Assembly: GCF_003334765.1 (NCBI RefSeq) | Contig: NZ_QOWT01000002.1 | Direction: 5' to 3' (one strand) | Length of the DNA stretch: 64,000 bases | From: Escherichia coli | GTDB lineage: Bacteria > Pseudomonadota > Gammaproteobacteria > Enterobacterales > Enterobacteriaceae | In this document: positions 41,072-48,663 of the stretch, piece after piece | Position numbering within the stretch: position 1 is the first letter of the stretch | Layout of the letters: every line of letters starts with the position of its first letter | Made by a program: the position numbers and the translations under genes | Notes under the pieces: model-generated | Databases searched by the model: none | Seen by the model: the letters and a program-made list of their open reading frames with translations, nothing else | Told to the model about the DNA's origin: nothing

Positions 41072-41337
41072 TCCACCGTAAATTGAATGCCTGATTTTGA
41101 GGTATATGATCCAACCTGATTCCGTGGTTCTCCTGAAGGTGTCGAATCTTGTGCTGGCGCTGCGTCAGTATTCATTGACATATACCGCTTAACGGCACTC
41201 CCCAATGATTCACCTTTTTTAACATCCAACCCCAATATCTGACCGCCATTACGCGATTGTCCAGGGTTGCCATTCGCGCTCATCCACTCGGCTTTAAACT
41301 CATTAAACTGCGCGTTTCGTCGCTCAAGGTTTGCCAT
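41068..41337 (-). CDS. small ORF overlapping upstream gene (possible frameshift remnant)
   Basis: 89 aa, overlaps 41280-42197 ORF by 58 nt in another frame; 4-nt overlap with gp16-like start. Confidence 0.3.
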
Positions 41338-42197
41338 TGCATCAAGCCATCTTGCGACCGTCTCAGGGTTTCCATGTTTACTGACAGCTTAGGTGCTTCG
41401 CTAATCAACTGCTGAGCCTTTTCCTGCGCTTGCTGCATCTTAAACCCGAACTCTTGCTGATCCAGAGCCAAGCGTTGTGCTGCGATATTGTGCCCAGTCA
41501 TTGCTGACTGATAGGAAAGGTTTTGCCCTCTCGCCTGAAGTGCTTCACCAGCCTGATTGCTGCGGATTGTCTCTGCCAGCCTGCCTCGGTCAATCTCACG
41601 ACCAGCCATCTTGTCCTGAACAGCAAACGCCTTTTCTGGTCCAAGCGCACCGAGAGACATAGTAGTCAGCATGTGTGATAGCTGCTCTGGATTCTGGATA
41701 CCTGTCTGAATCATCCAGTCAGCATTAGCACCAACGCGATTTAACCTGTCCTTGTTGTCAGTAATGAATTTACTGTAGGCTTCCGGTCCCTGAGAAAGAG
41801 CGACGTTAGCCCTCATGGCTAAATCGCCCATATCGTTGCGTTGCTGATCATTAAGACCGGAAAACGCCTGTTGTGCCTGTGCAACAAACGCTGGATTTTC
41901 CTGGGCAAACTTAAATAGTCCCGATGGATCACCAGAAGCCCATGCATCAGCGTGAACCTTATTGAACGCACTAATAGCTTTCTGTTGCTGTTCCTGATTG
42001 TAAATATCAGCAACTCCAGCCAGACCACGTAACGCGGTCAGGCCAACGTTATTTGCACCTGAGCGAGCCAGTTCATTGTTTTCGCGGATCAGACCAAGCG
42101 TTGCGTTAATGTCGCTTGCCTTTGGCGCATTCTCATTTTGCGTACCGATGCCAGCCAGAAAACCACCAGAATTAATACCCTGTTGCCACGTAGCCAT
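41280..42197 (-). CDS. P22 gp20-like ejection protein (possibly truncated)
   Basis: 305 aa, Gln/Ala-rich; positioned between gp7-like and gp16-like genes. Confidence 0.5.
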
Positions 42198-42207
42198 TGA
42201 TTACCCC

Positions 42208-42903
42208 TTAATAAAGCAGTGAACCAAGCAGACCGATACCAGCACCGATACCAGCACCCCACGGAGTTGATGAACCAATTAATTTCGCAAGTCCAGCCCC
42301 AGCAATAGCACCAGACGCACCTCCGCCAATAGCAGATTGCATTGCTGATGGTCTGTTGGCATTTGCCGCTGCAAGAGCCGCACTTTGCTGCGAAATCTGA
42401 CTCATGTTGTTGGCATATGTCTGCCCGGCGTTTGCCTGACCTTGCAGTGCGCCAAGACCAATATTTGCCAGATTCTGGTAGTTGTTCATCTGACCAGATA
42501 GCCATTGCTGACCAAGCGTTGGTGCGATTGTTGCTAACTGATTACCGGTTGCAGTGGAACCCAATCCACCTGTTGCTTCCGCTGCCGCCAGACTCTGATA
42601 GCGAGCCTGACCAGCAAGATCTTTGTACTGCTGAGAGTTGTAATACTGGTTAAGTGCCTGACCTTGCCCTTCCAGAGACGATAAGTTCTCGAGGCTGCCG
42701 ACATACTTATCAGCCAGAGGAGTAAACGGCTTCAGGTTGTTCATGATGGTGTTGAACTGCTGATTTTGCAGGTCTGCGGCATACTTCTGAGCTTCTGCTG
42801 CATACTTTGCGCTTTTATCAGAACTGCCACCTTTCCCGCCTTTTTCAGGGCAATAAGGTTCCTCGCCGCGCAGTTTTCTGCCCAGCTTAAATGCATATAA
42901 CAT
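42208..42903 (-). CDS. P22 gp7-like ejection protein
   Basis: 231 aa from internal Met (MLYAFKLGRK) of a 460-aa ORF; Gly-rich hydrophobic C-terminus. Confidence 0.5.
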   Translation of the reverse strand: MLYAFKLGRKLRGEEPYCPEKGGKGGSSDKSAKYAAEAQKYAADLQNQQFNTIMNNLKPFTPLADKYVGSLENLSSLEGQGQALNQYYNSQQYKDLAGQARYQSLAAAEATGGLGSTATGNQLATIAPTLGQQWLSGQMNNYQNLANIGLGALQGQANAGQTYANNMSQISQQSAALAAANANRPSAMQSAIGGGASGAIAGAGLAKLIGSSTPWGAGIGAGIGLLGSLLY

Positions 42904-43590
42904 GGCTAACGCCGAGATGCCGTATTGCGCATAGCTCATACAATCAATTTCGCCTTCGCAAAGTACAACCGCCCTCACGCCAGCGTCCAGAGCCTGCCAT
43001 CCGAACAGACAAGGTTCGCAATCACCTTCTGCCATAATGACTTTCTTCCCGTCCGGGCGCTCAGTGCTGATTCGCTTGACCTGCAACAACTCACCATCGC
43101 GTTTGTACGGAATCACCAGAGCATCCAGTTCTCGCTCTCCATTCCACACCTTGCCGCTGACAACCTCGTAGCGCTTTACGATTTCTGGCGATATGCCACG
43201 CGATTGCAGGTACTCAAGATGGGATTCTGTTCTGGTAACGTAGCGGGCGATTTTCTTGCGATCAGGTCTGGAGAATTTCTTCTCACGTCTGGCATCGAAA
43301 TGGTGATCGTCATCCTTGATACCGAGAAATGCTTTCGCTTCCTGCATAGCCTGATGCAGGTTAATTCCACGACATGCCATCCACAAATCAAGCATGTCAC
43401 CGCCGTCTCCCTCAGCGAAATCAGCCCATTTTTTCTTGCCGCTAAGGTTGACCTTAAGGCTGTTTCCCTTGTCACCGTTGACGTTACCGGCAACCCACTC
43501 ATGCCCCTCTTTCTTGCCGTTTGGCAACAGGTGCGGAGCCACCCTGTCAACCTGCGCCCAAAGCAGGTCGCTAAGTTCACTTGGCGTCAT
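42904..43590 (-). pseudogene. truncated DNA primase fragment (toprim), reads in frame into gp7-like gene
   Basis: 229 aa ending VVLCEGEIDCMSYAQYGIS (DnaG-like toprim EGxxD...AQYGI), no helicase/C-terminal part. Confidence 0.55.
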
Positions 43591-43697: not shown

Positions 43698-44558
43698 TCA
43701 CCTGTCGAAAAACACGTAGCCAGTTTTCGATACGGTGATTGCGGATGATGGTTTGGATTGTGGTTGAATGGTTTCTGGCTTTTCGTCGTTCCAGCGCTGA
43801 CCGTTCAGGTAGCTCGATGGTAACAACCTGTCGAATCCGAACTGCTTACCATTCCTGCATGCGATGTCTTCTGCCAGCATCGTGGCAAACTCGCTTGCCG
43901 TACCCCTGGTAGTTTTACGCCATTCCCTGAACTGTGTTCTGAATGCCGAAGCTGCGTTTTTCTTCCCGGCTTTCCGCATGCCTGCACACCAGAATATTTC
44001 CTCGAATGCCTTGTCGGTTTCTTCGTGACGGTCAGGTGATTTTTCACACTCCGTCCGAACACTTTCGGACATAGTGTTTTTATTATTTCTTTTTTCTTTT
44101 GTAATAGTTTCTTTTGTGTGTCCCTGTTTTGGTGACAGCGCTGTCACCGTTTTGGTGACACTTTTTGTCACCAATGCGGTGACATTATCACCAGAGTAGT
44201 GACACCCTTCGATTTGCCATTCCTCGATGTTCTTGTTAGGCCCGATTTGCTGGCCTTCGCGAAGGATAACCTTCATCGCGATAAGCTCATTCTTGGCCTT
44301 GTTTACCTTCTGTCTTGGCAGCCTGGTAATTTGAGCTAACTGACTATCAGAGATGCGATCCATCTTTTTACCGTAGCCGTATGTTTTACGGCATATGGCG
44401 TGGGCAACCTTGCTCTGATTTTTCGTTAAATCTGCGCCGATAAGCTCTTCATACAGGGCATTTGCAAGACGGGTATAACCATCTTCAACTTCTGCCACAC
44501 GACGCTCCACAGGCCGTTGTGAAGGCCTTAAATGTGTTACGGTTGCAAGATTACTCAT
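43698..44558 (-). CDS. replication initiation protein, lambda O-like N-terminal domain
   Basis: 286 aa; N-terminal domain typical of phage O proteins. Confidence 0.65.
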
Positions 44559-44697
44559 GACCTTTCTCCTTCTGCATCAGCTTCACTTTTTCCAACTCAG
44601 CCCGGAATCGACCAGGCTGCTTGAAGCTGGACAGGAAGCGATCACGTAGTATGTGTTTGTGAATTTTGTCCTGGTAAGGACTGAGTTGTTTTGTCAT
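44551..44697 (-). CDS. small hypothetical protein
   Basis: 48 aa with AGGAG RBS; stop overlaps O-like start. Confidence 0.35.
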
Positions 44698-44731
44698 AAT
44701 GACTCCTGTGGATTGATCCAGTCTTTCTACA

Positions 44732-45010
44732 TCAGGCCTCGAAGAATTCGCCGTTCTTCGGGGCTTTTTCTTTTGTCAGCATTCTGGCTACTTGCTTAGC
44801 CAGTTCCGCCAACTCCTCGTCTTCAACACCCCATTCAAGAACAGCAAGAAGCATTCCCATTTTGGGGATGAAGCTGTCTTTCCATCGCGAAATTTGCGAT
44901 TCATTAATCCCTAACGCGTCGGCAACCTTTCGCTGACCACGTACAGCAATTCGATTCAGGATGTTGCTTGTAATTGCATTCGCTTTCTTGCGAGTACTTG
45001 TAAGTTGCAT
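44732..45010 (-). CDS. cII: CII-like transcriptional activator
   Basis: 92 aa; [25 protein letters not shown] closely parallels lambda CII. Confidence 0.85.
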
Positions 45011-45068
45011 ATGTAAGTATTTCCTTAACTAATAAGAAGTTATGCGCATCAACTTATGCGCGTTGTAT

Positions 45069-45112
45069 TCCCGCATTTCGGCGGGAATGAGGACCATGAC
45101 TGTTAAAGAGCG
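45069..45112 (-). promoter_or_regulatory. nutR (boxA plus boxB hairpin)
   Basis: minus-strand cgctctttaa (boxA) then tcccgc-cgaaat-gcggga hairpin, between cro and cII. Confidence 0.7.
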
Positions 45113-45118
45113 GTGTTA

Positions 45119-45319
45119 CTATTTGTTTTTCTTGTTGCTTGGGAAAGGACGAACTTCCTCTCCAATCACACTGCCATCAGGCTTTACCGTAACCATAATG
45201 TTACGGCCTGCCAGAATGGCCTTGCTGATAGCGCACTGGATTACACCAAAGTCACTGGCTGCTTTAGCCTGTCCATGGATTTTGGCGTAATCGGCAAGTG
45301 TCATTCGAATCATATGCAC
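45119..45319 (-). CDS. cro: Cro repressor
   Basis: 66 aa; C-terminus [11 protein letters not shown] matches lambda Cro. Confidence 0.85.
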
Positions 45320-45343
45320 TCTCCGTTATTAACCATGAACAAA

Positions 45344-45408
45344 GAATACTACAGGTATTCAAAGCAATCAATACTCAGGGTATTTTTAGTTTAAGTACCT
45401 TAGCTATT
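45344..45408. promoter_or_regulatory. OR1-OR2-OR3 operators with PR/PRM
   Basis: gaatactacaggtattc, caatactcagggtattt, taagtaccttagctatt; centres about 24 bp apart between divergent cro and cI. Confidence 0.7.
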
Positions 45409-45419
45409 AGAATTAAGCT

Positions 45420-46136
45420 ATGGAAAATAAAAAATCACTGACGACAGAACAGCTCGAAGACGCTAAGCGGCTTAAGGCTTTGTATGAGTCAAAAAAGAAA
45501 GAATTGGGAATAACCCAATACTCAATCGCTGATGAACTGGGTATCACCCAAGGAGCGGTAGGGCATTATCTTAATGGCAGAAACGCGCTAAACGTTGAGG
45601 TCGCATCTGGTTTTGCACGTTTGTTGCAAGTCTCAATTGCTGATTTTAGCCAGTCAATTGCTGCCAAGGTTGCAGAACAGGCAGAAAGCCTTAAGAGCGA
45701 TGCCAACGTAAGGTATGCAGGGGAATACAGAGCAGGAAAGAGGTATCCGGTGTTAAGCAGTATCCAGGCTGGCTCGTGGTGTGAAGCATGCGAACCATAC
45801 ACCATTAAAGACATAGATGTTTGGCTTGAGTCTGACGCGCATATTCAAGGTAATGCGTTCTGGCTTAAAGTGGAAGGTGATTCAATGACGGCACCGGTTG
45901 GGTTAAGCATTCCAGAGGGAACATTCGTTCTTTTCGATACCGGAAGGGAGGCGATCAACGGCAGCTTGGTCATAGCAAAACTTTCTGACTCTAACGAAGC
46001 AACATTCAAGAAGCTGATAATCGACGGCGGAAATAAATACCTCAAGGGACTTAACCCTGCATGGCCTCTCGTGCCAATCAATGGAAACTGCAAGATTATA
46101 GGCGTTGCAATTGAGACAAAACTAAGGCTGGTTTGA
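45420..46136 (+). CDS. cI: CI-like repressor (HTH plus S24 autopeptidase)
   Basis: 238 aa; N-terminal LTTEQLEDAKRLKALYESKKKELG; C-terminal GDSM...FKKL Ser/Lys dyad; Ala-Gly site. Confidence 0.9.
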   Translation: MENKKSLTTEQLEDAKRLKALYESKKKELGITQYSIADELGITQGAVGHYLNGRNALNVEVASGFARLLQVSIADFSQSIAAKVAEQAESLKSDANVRYAGEYRAGKRYPVLSSIQAGSWCEACEPYTIKDIDVWLESDAHIQGNAFWLKVEGDSMTAPVGLSIPEGTFVLFDTGREAINGSLVIAKLSDSNEATFKKLIIDGGNKYLKGLNPAWPLVPINGNCKIIGVAIETKLRLV

Positions 46137-46155
46137 TCACGCAAGGGGGGCGCTT

Positions 46156-46524
46156 ATGGTTGGAACCGCTATAGCAAGCTTTTTGGGGATGTTGGCAATC
46201 TCAACAATTTACGGCTTAGCGCATGCTTTTATTGCGAAATCTCTATCAGAAAAAATAAGCCAGGCTTGGGCGCATAGATCAGCTCGTTTCATGATTCTAG
46301 TGGTCATAGCAATACAAGGGATATCTGCATTTATCCTCTATGGATCAAGCTTATACCTGTTGTATCAAGGAGCGACATTTACGCCTTACACCAGTGATTA
46401 CGGAACTCTATACGATGGTAGTGAAGACATCTCTATGGCTTGGATCGTCTTTGGTTTATCTATGGCCGTGTCTGTTGTAGCAGACATCATTAAGGTAATT
46501 CTCGTCTTAACCTTCGCTGACTAA
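46156..46524 (+). CDS. small 4-TM membrane protein in rexB-equivalent position
   Basis: 122 aa, four hydrophobic segments, RBS aagggggg, starts 20 bp after cI stop. Confidence 0.55.
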   Translation: MVGTAIASFLGMLAISTIYGLAHAFIAKSLSEKISQAWAHRSARFMILVVIAIQGISAFILYGSSLYLLYQGATFTPYTSDYGTLYDGSEDISMAWIVFGLSMAVSVVADIIKVILVLTFAD

Positions 46525-46654
46525 CCCATAATCCCGGCAGCAATAGCTATCGGGATCCACTTCACATATCCCGCATAAAAAGCACTGAACAAGCAGATAC
46601 CGAAAAAATAAATATCCTTTGTATTCATTTGTTTATCATTATTTCATCAAAAAT

Positions 46655-46696
46655 AAATACCTTGGGTATTTACACAATAAAATACCTACAGTATTC
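46655..46696. promoter_or_regulatory. OL operators/PL
   Basis: aaataccttgggtattt and aaatacctacagtattc share the OR half-sites. Confidence 0.6.
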
Positions 46697-46743
46697 TTTA
46701 GCCATCAGCAGGACGCTGGAAGCCAAACGGAACAGATTGGCAG

Positions 46744-46784
46744 GCTCTTTAACATTGATGGGATTGTCCCGCCGAAATGCGGGA
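46744..46784 (+). promoter_or_regulatory. nutL (boxA plus boxB hairpin)
   Basis: gctctttaa then tcccgc-cgaaat-gcggga, identical boxB to nutR. Confidence 0.7.
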
Positions 46785-46891
46785 ACCAAAGAGTAGTTGG
46801 CTTTGGGGTGACGTGAAGTGCAGCTGCACGACGGCAACCGGAAGATAAGCACCCGGCGCGTCACCGCCAAAGCCAATCATCGGAGGTCAAC

Positions 46892-47188
46892 ATGATAATC
46901 GTTACTTATCTGGCTGATGATAACACCAGAAATCGCCGCAGAGCACGCAGACAGGCTCAACGTGAACAGGCAATGCAAGAACAGCGACTTGCGCGAAAAA
47001 TTGCGCTAAAGCTCTCTGGTTGCGTCAGAGCAGATAAAGCAGCATCACTCGGAAGCCTTCGCTGCAAGAAGGCAGAAGAAGTCGAGCGTAAACAGAACCG
47101 TATTTACTACCGCAAGCCACGCAGTGAAATGGGTGTGACTTGTGTTGGTCGCCAGAAAATGAAATTAGGCAGCAAACCACTTATTTGA
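46892..47188 (+). CDS. N: N-like antiterminator
   Basis: 98 aa; Arg-rich motif TRNRRRARRQAQREQ; C-terminus GVTCVGRQKMKLGSKPLI parallels lambda N. Confidence 0.85.
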   Translation: MIIVTYLADDNTRNRRRARRQAQREQAMQEQRLARKIALKLSGCVRADKAASLGSLRCKKAEEVERKQNRIYYRKPRSEMGVTCVGRQKMKLGSKPLI

Positions 47189-47864: not shown

Positions 47865-48392
47865 TTGATAGGATATAAAATGGCATTTATAAAGATTCTT
47901 GAATTAATTTCCCTAAGTGAGATTAATAATGTTGTCAAATATAACCCTATTTCTGGTGAGTTCACATGGCTAAAATCTTATGGAGCAAGAAAGATAGGTG
48001 GAACTGCCGGAACAATAACAACAAGCGGCTACTTAAGGATTTTCATTAACGGAAGACACTATGCTGCACATAGACTTGCATGGATTATCACTTTCGGTGT
48101 TGAGCCTGAAGGTATTATCGACCATATAAATGGCATAAAGACAGATAACAGAATTTGCAATCTGAGGCTTGCAACTTACTCACAGAATTCAATGAATAGT
48201 AAAATAAATACCCTCAACAAATCAGGTTGCAAAGGAGTCACATGGAAGAAGGAAAGTAGAAAGTGGGCTGCCTATGGGAAATTAAACGGGAAGAAAAAAC
48301 ATCTAGGGTACTTTAATGAATTAGAAGATGCCAAAAAAGCTTACTGCGACTTTGCCAGAAAGCATCACGGCGAATTCTACAGGAGCAAATAA
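47865..48392 (+). CDS. HNH endonuclease with AP2-like DNA-binding domain
   Basis: 175 aa; IDHINGIKTDNRICNLRLAT HNH motif; GVTWKK...YGK..GKKKHLGYF AP2-like. Confidence 0.75.
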   Translation: MIGYKMAFIKILELISLSEINNVVKYNPISGEFTWLKSYGARKIGGTAGTITTSGYLRIFINGRHYAAHRLAWIITFGVEPEGIIDHINGIKTDNRICNLRLATYSQNSMNSKINTLNKSGCKGVTWKKESRKWAAYGKLNGKKKHLGYFNELEDAKKAYCDFARKHHGEFYRSK

Positions 48393-48526
48393 TGAATGAA
48401 TATATTTTAGCGGGTAGCGGCGTCATGTCCGCTTTCTACCCGCACGAATCTGAATTATCACGCCGAGTTAAACAATTAATCAGAGCAGCAAAGAAACAAC
48501 TGGAGGCGTTATGCGCAATGAAATAG
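48392..48526 (+). CDS. cIII: CIII-like protein
   Basis: 44 aa; YILAGSGVMSAFYPHESELSRRVKQL parallels lambda CIII core. Confidence 0.6.
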   Translation: MNEYILAGSGVMSAFYPHESELSRRVKQLIRAAKKQLEALCAMK

Positions 48527-48663
48527 CCATTAATCACCAGATGCTTCGTGCTGCACAGAACAAAGCAGTAATAGCCAGATTTATTGGTGATTCCAAAATG
48601 TGGCTTGAAGCAAATAAAGCGATGAAATCAGCTATCAACCTTCCGTGGTATCGCAGGAAATGA
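48511..48663 (+). CDS. Kil-like small protein (tentative)
   Basis: 50 aa; IARFIGDSKMW resembles lambda Kil; follows cIII as in lambda. Confidence 0.4.
   Translation: MRNEIAINHQMLRAAQNKAVIARFIGDSKMWLEANKAMKSAINLPWYRRK

Follow-up and report, generated by a model that had tools for sequence, protein, structure and literature searches.

A lambda-like immunity region, very probably of the HK620/mEpX2 type, in a deleted P22-like prophage at argW of Escherichia coli

The stretch of Escherichia coli DNA analysed here (64,000 nucleotides, hereafter the window) carries a P22-like, Lederbergvirus-type prophage at argW, between yfdC and dsdC. Positions 44551-47188 hold an immunity region in the order hkaW-cII-nutR-cro-OR-cI-hkaS-OL-nutL-N. 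An earlier note on this DNA had placed cI, cro, cII and N here, and all four were recovered at those places through Pfam, PHROG and lambda homology.

The cI gene (45420-46136, plus strand) encodes a 238-aa repressor with an N-terminal helix-turn-helix and a C-terminal S24 autopeptidase domain (Pfam HTH_3 and Peptidase_S24, E 7.5e-24). The protein is a full-length homologue of the lambda repressor (3bdn; E 2.9e-52 over residues 3-232), and its Ala117-Gly118, Ser155 and Lys197 align with lambda A111-G112, S149 and K192, so that both the cleavage site and the Ser/Lys dyad of the S24 autopeptidase, which the earlier note had called intact, are in place. All 238 residues are identical to those of cI from the isolated phage mEpX2, and 237/238 to those of HK620 cI. 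The divergent cro gene (45119-45313, minus strand), whose ATG lies 7 nt after a GGAG, encodes a 64-aa member of the lambda Cro family (Pfam Cro, PF09048, residues 1-59 of 59, E 4e-26; E 4.7e-19 against lambda Cro structures) that is identical to HK620 Cro at 64/64 positions. Past cI lies hkaS (46156-46524, plus strand), encoding a 122-aa hydrophobic protein of unknown function (PHROG 6534; 117/122 identical to HK620 hkaS). It appears to be co-transcribed with cI, occupying the position of rex in lambda.

The 106 bp between cro (minus strand) and cI (plus strand) hold three 17-bp operator sites and the hexamer pairs of both promoters (45343-45413, both strands): OR1 at 45344-45360, OR2 at 45369-45385 and OR3 at 45393-45409. 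PR, on the minus strand, has its -35 (TTGATT) at 45366-71 and its -10 (TATTCT) at 45343-48, where pR is annotated in HK620. PRM, on the plus strand, was placed by spacing (-35 TTTAGT, 45385-90; -10 TAGAAT, 45408-13), which implies that the cI mRNA, with its ATG at 45420, would be leaderless. A second operator cluster, OL, lies over PL upstream of N (46610-46697, plus strand), with OL2 at 46655-46671, OL1 at 46680-46696 and a candidate OL3 at 46610-46626; the PL hexamers (-35 TTTACA, 46669-74; -10 TATTCT, 46692-97; 17-nt gap) overlap OL1 and OL2, just as those of PR overlap operators in OR. Consecutive sites in OR start 25 and then 24 bp apart, and OL2 and OL1 start 25 bp apart.

The operator core, AATAC-N5-GTATT, occurs in four perfect copies in the 64 kb against 0.06 expected, a count reached by 0 of 100 shuffles, and these copies sit only at OR1, OR2, OL2 and OL1. 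OR3 has two mismatches to the core and the candidate OL3 has one. When a weight matrix made from the four strong sites was scored over the 64 kb, OR1, OR2, OL1 and OL2 came first, followed by 46610-46626 and then by OR3, meaning that the six top scores all fall within OR or OL. The three 17-bp sites about 24 bp apart that the earlier note had described in OR are thus confirmed, but its consensus was one base wrong: the 16-bp AATAC-N5-GGTATT matches no operator site even with two mismatches allowed. Its count of two sites in OL stands for OL1 and OL2, but HK620 is annotated with three, and there is the one-mismatch site at 46610-46626. The HK620 record marks OR1-3 with pR, and OL1 and OL2 with pL, at positions homologous to those of the window; its OL3 maps to about 46633-46649, outside the 20 best weight-matrix scores of the window. 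A weaker third OL site may lie at 46610-46626, different from the OL3 annotated in HK620 and a better candidate for it, a refinement that leaves current understanding unchanged. In the cousin phage Fostie, whose cI is 62% identical and whose recognition helix differs by one residue, palindromes of the type AGTAC-N5-GTACT, one of them perfect, lie both upstream and downstream of cI.

Left of cro, the activator gene cII (44732-45010, minus strand) encodes a Phage_CII protein (Pfam residues 1-91 of 91, E 1.8e-42; 90/92 identical to HK620 cII), and within its 5' end, on the opposite strand, lies TTGCTTGTAATTGC at 44964. A regex scan gave two candidate CII-binding repeats for pRE on the plus strand (44964-45001), TTGC-N6-TTGC at 44964-44977 and TTGC-N6-TTGT at 44988-45001; the mEpX2 record marks the former as the pRE site and the HK620 record the latter.

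A feature missed by the earlier note is an oop-like RNA, predicted on the plus strand at 44696-44775, antisense to the 3' end of cII. Its pO -10 (CATAAT) would lie at 44696-44701 and its start near 44709, and its terminator would have a 14-bp stem (44734-44766) and a run of T behind it. Its 5' end was set by alignment to the lambda/imm21 region together with the position of the lambda oop start. The predicted terminator folds at -29.5 kcal/mol (z = -4.2), and Rfam has no family for the oop antisense RNA. The conserved 33-bp pO/oop 5' sequence, with the consensus taken from PMC3349717, is matched at 32/33 positions at 44690-44722, and a putative intrinsic terminator (44734-44775) lies on the same strand, opposite the 3' end of cII.

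The hkaW gene (44551-44697, minus strand) overlaps the conserved oop promoter; its stop and the O-like start codon also overlap (ATGAGTAA). Its product is a 48-aa protein of the orf48/HK97 gp53/DUF2740 family, labelled 'DUF2740 family protein' in RefSeq, identical to HK620 hkaW at 48/48 positions (PHROG 1913, E 2.7e-28, residues 1-46 on profile 1-48) and homologous to P22 orf48 and HK97 gp53. The 48-aa ORF with a strong ribosome-binding site that had been noticed between cII and the O-like gene is therefore this known gene; as read from the sequence, AGGAG lies 5 nt before its ATG. In P22, HK022 and HK620, members of the orf48 family have been described at this place, after oop and before the O-like gene (PMC3349717).

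Two nut sites flank the switch, one past PL and one past cro, each with a boxA (CGCTCTT(T)A-like) followed by a boxB on the transcribed strand. In nutL (46744-46784, plus strand, transcribed from PL), boxA GCTCTTTAACA (46744-46754) is followed by a 12-nt spacer and boxB (46767-46784). In nutR (45069-45111, minus strand, transcribed from PR), boxA GCTCTTTAACA (45101-45111) is followed by a 14-nt spacer and boxB TCCCGC-CGAAAT-GCGGGA (45069-45086), whose hairpin folds at -10.5 kcal/mol (z = -3.1). The claim of one and the same boxA plus boxB hairpin upstream of N and in the cro-cII gap was exact: in the window there are precisely two copies of boxB (0.04 expected) and two of boxA (0.07 expected). 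Both sites are homologous to those annotated in HK620. Conservation of the hairpins in relatives, which the earlier note had proposed as a test, was also found, the hairpins being identical in HK620, mEpX2, N7 and IME10; the repressors of N7 and IME10 differ.

The N antiterminator (46892-47188, plus strand, 98 aa) belongs to PHROG 271 (E 4.7e-35) and matches Pfam N_peptide with E 0.01 only. Its residues 36-98 are 96.8% identical to the N of imm21 (phi21). Homology with HK620 DNA stops inside N, at 47080, the part shared with HK620 ending near residue 64. From these alignments, N is a natural hybrid: the N-terminal part with the arginine-rich motif (residues about 10-32) is of HK620 type, and the tail (36-98) of phi21 type. 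The window protein starts with MIIVTYLADDNT, versus MTVVITYLADDNA in HK620, N7 and IME10, which amounts to one codon fewer and a few substitutions before the arginine-rich motif.

Over about 2.5 kb (44551-47080), the window is 97.9% identical to HK620 (GenBank AF335538; Clark, Inwood, Cloutier & Dhillon 2001, J Mol Biol 311:657) and 98.6% identical to mEpX2 (JQ182726) at the nucleotide level. The 106-bp OR spacer is 100% identical to both phages, with 0 differences, and the repressor, Cro and operators are those of HK620/mEpX2, i.e., of the immHK620 specificity. The HK620 record already carries cI, cro, cII, N, hkaS, hkaW, OR1-3, OL1-3, pR, pL, pRE, nutL and nutR, labelled 'putative', and every element named by the earlier note has a counterpart there at a homologous position. 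We are therefore confident, short of certainty, that 44551-47188 is the primary immunity region (immC), of HK620/mEpX2 type with a lambda-like switch, of a P22-like argW prophage that has suffered a large internal deletion. The region, already published and annotated in HK620, is real, intact and probably working. HK620-type immunity is a common type in E. coli, because the module is present in 146 of 5,426 complete genomes of the species.

That the switch is functional, as the earlier note had read it, we infer from sequence identity: its proteins and cis sites match those of isolated temperate phages exactly or almost exactly, which supports this reading. No experimental study of CI/operator or N/boxB function of the HK620 type was found in the open-access literature searched. 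A lambda-like working would be expected, because the sites have the lambda geometry and the repressor and Cro are true lambda homologues; every step given here derives from sequence and homology. CI dimers would bind the 17-bp operators at OR1/OR2 and OL1/OL2, and the cro-cII-replication and N-cIII-kil-recT operons would be silent because the CI-bound operators overlap the -10 and -35 of PR and PL. CI at OR2, adjoining the weak -35 of PRM, probably activates the leaderless cI-hkaS transcript; at high CI, PRM would be repressed through OR3 and perhaps also through a third OL site. RecA-stimulated self-cleavage at Ala117-Gly118 through Ser155/Lys197 would lift repression. The arginine-rich motif of N would then bind boxB, with a hexaloop (C-GAAA-U) laid out like that of phi21 (C-UAAC-C), and N with the host Nus factors at boxA would render transcription from PL and PR resistant to terminators. 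CII would activate pRE within the start of cII, leading to establishment of lysogeny, and the oop-like antisense RNA would oppose cII.

The window also holds a second, complete immunity region (mnt, arc, ant and sar, 37015-38468) that was missed by the earlier note. Ant is a full-length homologue (PHROG 245, E 5.6e-112), the sar RNA reaches 65.6 bits, where the gathering score is 43, and two ORFs putatively encode Arc and Mnt, by their resemblance to the P22 proteins. With these four elements recognised, one could suppose that bipartite, P22-like control by Mnt/Arc/Ant/sar largely sets the switch, with Ant able to inactivate CI without SOS, in which case immC alone would not account for derepression. 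In P22 lysogens, Mnt holds ant off (see PMC2629481), and this control would supplement the immC reading rather than exclude it. We consider such dominance of the second region possible, albeit rather unlikely; CI may also need Mnt to hold the antirepressor in check if it is to stay active.

As to the rest of the prophage, the primase is cut down to its N-terminus (residues 2-228), which is joined to a full-length gp7, whereas in the intact relative the primase is 626 aa long and nin genes come next, and between argW and dsdC there are no terminase, portal, coat, Q or lysis genes. The fusion and these losses support the earlier note's statement that the phage cannot form particles: induction cannot yield phage, because the primase-helicase is truncated and the deletion has removed all of the head, packaging, Q and lysis genes. 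The primase-gp7 junction is absent from the 5,426 complete E. coli genomes, which suggests that the deletion is recent. One might then ask whether the switch is a silent relic that still looks intact because too little time has passed since the deletion, with CI unexpressed or unneeded. The defective state of the prophage and the slight difference of its N-terminus of N from that of isolated phages would fit, but cI matches that of an isolated phage at every residue, Cro, OR, OL1/OL2 and both nut sites are identical to those of HK620, and no frameshift or stop interrupts any of the six genes. Moreover, kil, cIII and N have been kept downstream of PL, so that losing repression would probably be harmful. 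We regard a relic as improbable. A chance origin of the palindromes and hairpins in AT-rich intergenic DNA has a practically negligible probability: the operator pattern with two mismatches is only mildly enriched over the window (41 versus 29.7 expected), but this reading is effectively refuted by the counts of perfect cores (all overlapping promoters), boxA and boxB and by the co-variation of boxB with the N motif, and site positions are conserved in HK620 and operators co-vary with the repressor helix.

An intact lambda-like switch of the HK620 type thus remains the preferred reading, and its predicted remaining roles are superinfection immunity to phages of HK620/mEpX2 immunity and silencing of toxic early genes such as kil. 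For the strain, this means an apparently recently crippled P22-like argW prophage with intact HK620-type immunity, of little import beyond annotation.

The N/boxB pair can be viewed more broadly. The HK620-type boxA/boxB pair and N arginine-rich motif are found together in phages with other repressors, and N proteins with one common C-terminal tail bear lambda, P22, phi21 or HK620-type motifs, each of these four types with its own boxB (ten phage loci plus the window). Swapping of motif and boxB as a cassette on a common N tail is a clear comparison of modest interest, and it leaves current understanding unchanged. We are evenly divided on whether the N motif DDNxRNRRRARRQAQREQA and boxB UCCCGC-CGAAAU-GCGGGA form a fourth pair, orthogonal to those of lambda, P22 and phi21. 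In a phi21-like hexaloop layout, its loop would form a genuine GAAA tetraloop, with a C-U mismatch closing it. If true, HK620 N/boxB could be used as a further orthogonal pair for peptide-RNA tethering and would offer a natural case for testing how arginine-rich motifs get retargeted; the window contributes just one further copy.

Compared with phi21, whose boxB hexaloop architecture is documented (PMC12550061; PDB 1NYB, NMR, Cilley & Williamson 2003), the window shares, besides the N tail, an almost identical boxA and start of the spacer and, by an inferred parallel, a hexaloop whose inner four bases may fold like a GNRA loop, with pyrimidine-pyrimidine closure (PMC12550061). However, neither the arginine-rich motif (DDNTRNRRRARRQAQREQA versus GTAKSRYKARRAELIAERRS) nor the boxB, in stem or loop, is related in sequence, which points to a different specificity.

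With lambda, the window shares true homologues of cI and Cro, 17-bp operators about 24 bp apart, an OR2 that adjoins the PRM -35, a cI start that looks leaderless, a gene after cI within one operon, TTGC-N6-TTGC and the oop promoter. It differs in its operator (AATAC-N5-GTATT, versus TATCACCGCCAGTGGTA in lambda), in an OR-OL distance of about 1.3 kb versus 2.4 kb, and in a boxB with a 6-bp stem and hexaloop versus the lambda GAAAA pentaloop. Between oop and the O-like gene it also has an extra 48-aa ORF that lambda does not have (PMC3349717).

The P22-like features are the bipartite immunity (immC plus immI, with mnt-arc-ant-sar), the orf48 homologue between the cII-like gene and the replication gene, the ejection proteins gp7/gp20/gp16 and the tailspike, but the immC proteins are of the lambda cI/lambda Cro type and not of the P22 c2/cro type; in N7 and IME10, the same N/nut module is combined with the P22 c2-type alternative. 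Finally, the window agrees with HK620 and mEpX2 in gene order and in the sequences of OR, OL1/2, nutL and nutR, and differs from them in the allele of the O-like replication gene on the left, in the C-terminal third of N, which is of phi21 type beyond a mosaic joint at ~47080, and in the deletion of the late genes of its host prophage.

The immunity region at 44551-47188 is of the HK620 immunity type, a common module that publications and database records already describe and annotate. In a search of a phage collection, 44551-47080 was 97.9% identical to HK620 (AF335538) and 98.6% identical to mEpX2 (JQ182726), both isolated phages. The GenBank record of HK620 annotates, at homologous positions, hkaW, cII, pRE with the CII site, tR1, nutR, cro, pR, OR1-3, cI, hkaS, tIMM, OL1-3, pL, nutL and N. 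The proteins match those of HK620 at 237/238 residues (cI), 64/64 (Cro), 90/92 (cII), 48/48 (hkaW) and 117/122 (hkaS); with the cI of mEpX2 the identity is 100%. The OR spacer is unchanged relative to both phages, as are OL1, OL2, nutL and nutR. Among 5,426 complete E. coli genomes, 146 carry the 1.7-kb module from nutR to nutL, with identities reaching 99.7%. The earlier note had described a lambda-like switch that looked functional; its observation was confirmed with two small corrections, and its interpretation is supported. Judging from its sequence, the copy in the window would be active. Our search of the open-access literature returned no experimental work on the operators or nut sites of HK620 or mEpX2.

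Gene order was established from a six-frame ORF list and direct reading of the sequence. On the minus strand lie hkaW (44551-44697, 48 aa, matched by PHROG and HK620), cII (44732-45010, 92 aa; full-length Pfam Phage_CII, E 1.8e-42) and cro (45119-45313, 64 aa; full-length Pfam Cro, E 4e-26). A 106-bp spacer separates cro from the divergent cI (45420-46136, plus strand, 238 aa; Pfam HTH_3 and Peptidase_S24). Then follow, also on the plus strand, hkaS (46156-46524, 122 aa, an HK620 homologue), a 367-bp spacer and N (46892-47188, 98 aa; PHROG 271, "anti-termination protein N-like", E 4.7e-35). The lambda repressor structure 3bdn aligned end to end with cI (E 2.9e-52), placing Ala117-Gly118, Ser155 and Lys197 in register with the cleavage site and catalytic residues of the lambda protein, and lambda Cro structures were matched by the 64-aa Cro at E 4.7e-19. 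Since the Pfam, structure and PHROG matches name these ORFs, the calls of cI, cro, cII and N in the earlier note were right. N matched Pfam N_peptide weakly (E 0.01), and an NCBIfam search gave no family-level name for Cro, cII, N, hkaW or hkaS.

The operator consensus first proposed, AATAC-N5-GGTATT, failed to match any operator site, also when two mismatches were tolerated, and has to be replaced by the core AATAC-N5-GTATT. The 64 kb contain four perfect copies of this core, at OR1 (45344-45360), OR2 (45369-45385), OL2 (46655-46671) and OL1 (46680-46696); 0.06 would be expected, and none of the shuffles attained that count of four. OR3 (45393-45409) carries two mismatches. From start to start, the OR sites are 25 and 24 bp apart, and OL1 and OL2 25 bp. 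The three OR sites that had been proposed stand; OL, for which two sites had been described, may hold a third, with a candidate OL3 at 46610-46626 (AAATATCCTTTGTATTC, one mismatch, 45 bp from OL2). When a weight matrix trained on the four perfect sites was scanned over the window, those sites ranked first, 46610-46626 fifth and OR3 next. The OL3 position annotated in HK620 (~46633-46649) fell outside the 20 best scores of the window, and 46610-46626 would be the better candidate.

PR (TTGATT-17-TATTCT, minus strand) lies over OR2 and OR1, and PL (TTTACA-17-TATTCT, plus strand) over OL2 and OL1, so that promoter hexamers overlap operator sites as they do in lambda. PRM is probably the weak TTTAGT-17-TAGAAT on the plus strand, an assignment suggested by geometry, as it directly adjoins OR2. 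Its end is six bases 5' of the cI ATG, implying a leaderless cI mRNA.

Between hkaS and OL, a very hydrophobic 35-aa ORF (MNTKDIYFFGICLFSAFYAGYVKWIPIAIAAGIMG; 46521-46628, minus strand) was examined as a possible gene for a small toxin or membrane protein and rejected. The frame is also open in HK620; it is left out of our gene list because all 3 nucleotide differences are non-synonymous, no Shine-Dalgarno sequence precedes it and it has no PHROG match. The start of this doubtful ORF is overlapped by 46610-46626.

The 48-aa ORF hkaW belongs to the orf48/HK97 gp53/DUF2740 family, whose genes in P22, HK022 and HK620 have oop on one side and the O-like gene on the other; lambda lacks such a gene (PMC3349717). 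Its AGGAG and ATG fall inside a 33-bp block, conserved among lambdoid phages, that comprises the oop promoter and 5' end. At 44690-44722 the window agrees with this block in 32/33 bases, and a terminator with a 14-bp stem and a T-run follows at 44734-44775, on the strand opposite to cII and overlapping the cII end. Block and terminator together predict an oop-like antisense RNA of ~66 nt (within 44690-44775, plus strand). This RNA had been missed in the earlier note and is without annotation in the HK620 record. A search of 32-53 kb against Rfam (E <= 1) returned only sar RNA, tRNA-Arg and two chance matches, with no nut, boxB or oop family.

The sar RNA belongs to a P22-type immI, the second immunity region, which is complete at 37015-38468. 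It comprises the antirepressor Ant (37015-37893, minus strand), sar antisense RNA (37895-37961, plus strand; 65.6 bits, above the gathering score of 43), an ORF within 37962-38186 (minus strand) that we take to be Arc, and one at 38214-38468 (plus strand) that is presumably Mnt. In HK620 itself a degraded ant was reported (PMC2629481), whereas immI is intact here; the prophage thus carries both this immI and an HK620 immC.

The prophage extends from intS (32471) to ~52.3 kb, and its two flanks, yfdC-argW and dsdC-dsdXA-emrY, are E. coli chromosome. The argW tRNA-Arg(CCT) and the intS-type integrase occupy 32271-33664, the integrase being transcribed away from the tRNA and lying beside the tailspike end, which is the usual arrangement for P22-like prophages that occupy argW in E. 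coli. The genes retained are those for tailspike, Ant, gp16 and a short gp20 homologue, along with a primase-gp7 ORF. In the last of these (42208-43590, minus strand, 460 aa), residues ~1-228 are toprim primase-helicase and the rest is full-length P22 gp7 ejection protein, with an in-frame junction at ~42908; an intact relative has a primase-helicase of 626 aa with nin genes after it. The fusion marks where nin, Q, lysis, packaging and head genes were deleted. Genes for terminase, portal, coat, Q and lysis are absent from the prophage, which bears out the view that it cannot form particles. Because the junction was found in 0 of 5,426 complete E. coli genomes, the deletion looks recent, and this would account for the absence of decay in the immunity region. 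The gp20-like gene (41280-42197, minus strand, 305 aa, compared with profiles of 435-509 positions) is separated from the gp16 gene after it by a gap of 209 bp, and may be a second truncation.

N, cIII, kil, recT and a Gam-like gene are still under PL. Homologues of cIII (44 aa) and kil (50 aa) lie downstream of N at 48392-48663 (plus strand), and their retention in a non-lytic prophage suggests that derepression of PL is probably toxic; continued repression would then probably be advantageous. An HNH endonuclease gene (47865-48392, plus strand; PHROG 99, E 1.2e-68), situated in the PL operon between N and cIII/kil, is likely a mobile insertion.

As the earlier note had described, the nut sites contain two identical hairpins, one on the plus strand between PL and N (nutL) and one on the minus strand between cro and cII (nutR). 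The 18-nt hairpin TCCCGC-CGAAAT-GCGGGA occurs exactly twice in the window against 0.04 expected, and GCTCTTTAACA, 12-14 nt 5' of each copy, only twice against 0.07 expected. Folding gave -10.5 kcal/mol (z = -3.1) for the isolated boxB hairpin and unremarkable z-scores (-1.6 and -1.1) for the whole nut regions; only the isolated hairpin stands out. Non-conservation of the hairpins among relatives had been named as evidence against the switch; we found the reverse, conservation in HK620, mEpX2, N7 and IME10.

N itself has an arginine-rich N-terminus of the HK620 type, and its last 63 residues (36-98) are 96.8% identical to phi21 N. Similarity to HK620 N stops near residue 64, which corresponds to a DNA mosaic joint at ~47080. 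To judge by these matches, N is a natural hybrid of an HK620-type front and a phi21-type tail. The same tail is shared by HK542, with lambda motif and lambda boxB, by an Stx1 phage, with P22 motif and P22 boxB, and by imm21, mEp235 and mEpX1, with phi21 motif and a CUAACC-hexaloop boxB. The window, HK620, mEpX2, N7 and IME10 pair the motif DDNxRNRRRARRQAQREQA with a CGAAAU-hexaloop boxB. Since the repressor of N7 and IME10 is different (P22 c2-type), the N/nut pair moves independently of cI/cro, never without its own boxB. In the phi21 boxB hexaloop, a C-C pair closes a GNRA-like UAAC fold (PMC12550061, PDB 1NYB). By analogy, in the C-GAAA-U loop a C-U mismatch may close a GNRA tetraloop.

Together with these N/boxB pairs, a comparison with phage Fostie (L006) lends the predicted function support that goes beyond near-identical copies. 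Its cI is 62% identical to that of the window, and the recognition helices of the two differ in a single residue (TQSAVGHYLNG versus TQGAVGHYLNG). Palindromes of the AGTAC-N5-GTACT type, one of them perfect, flank the Fostie cI on both sides (L006 1700-1800 and 2570-2640). The geometry is the same as in the HK620 type, but the operator half-site is shifted, with one position different; Fostie is, by this comparison, a heteroimmune cousin of the HK620 type.
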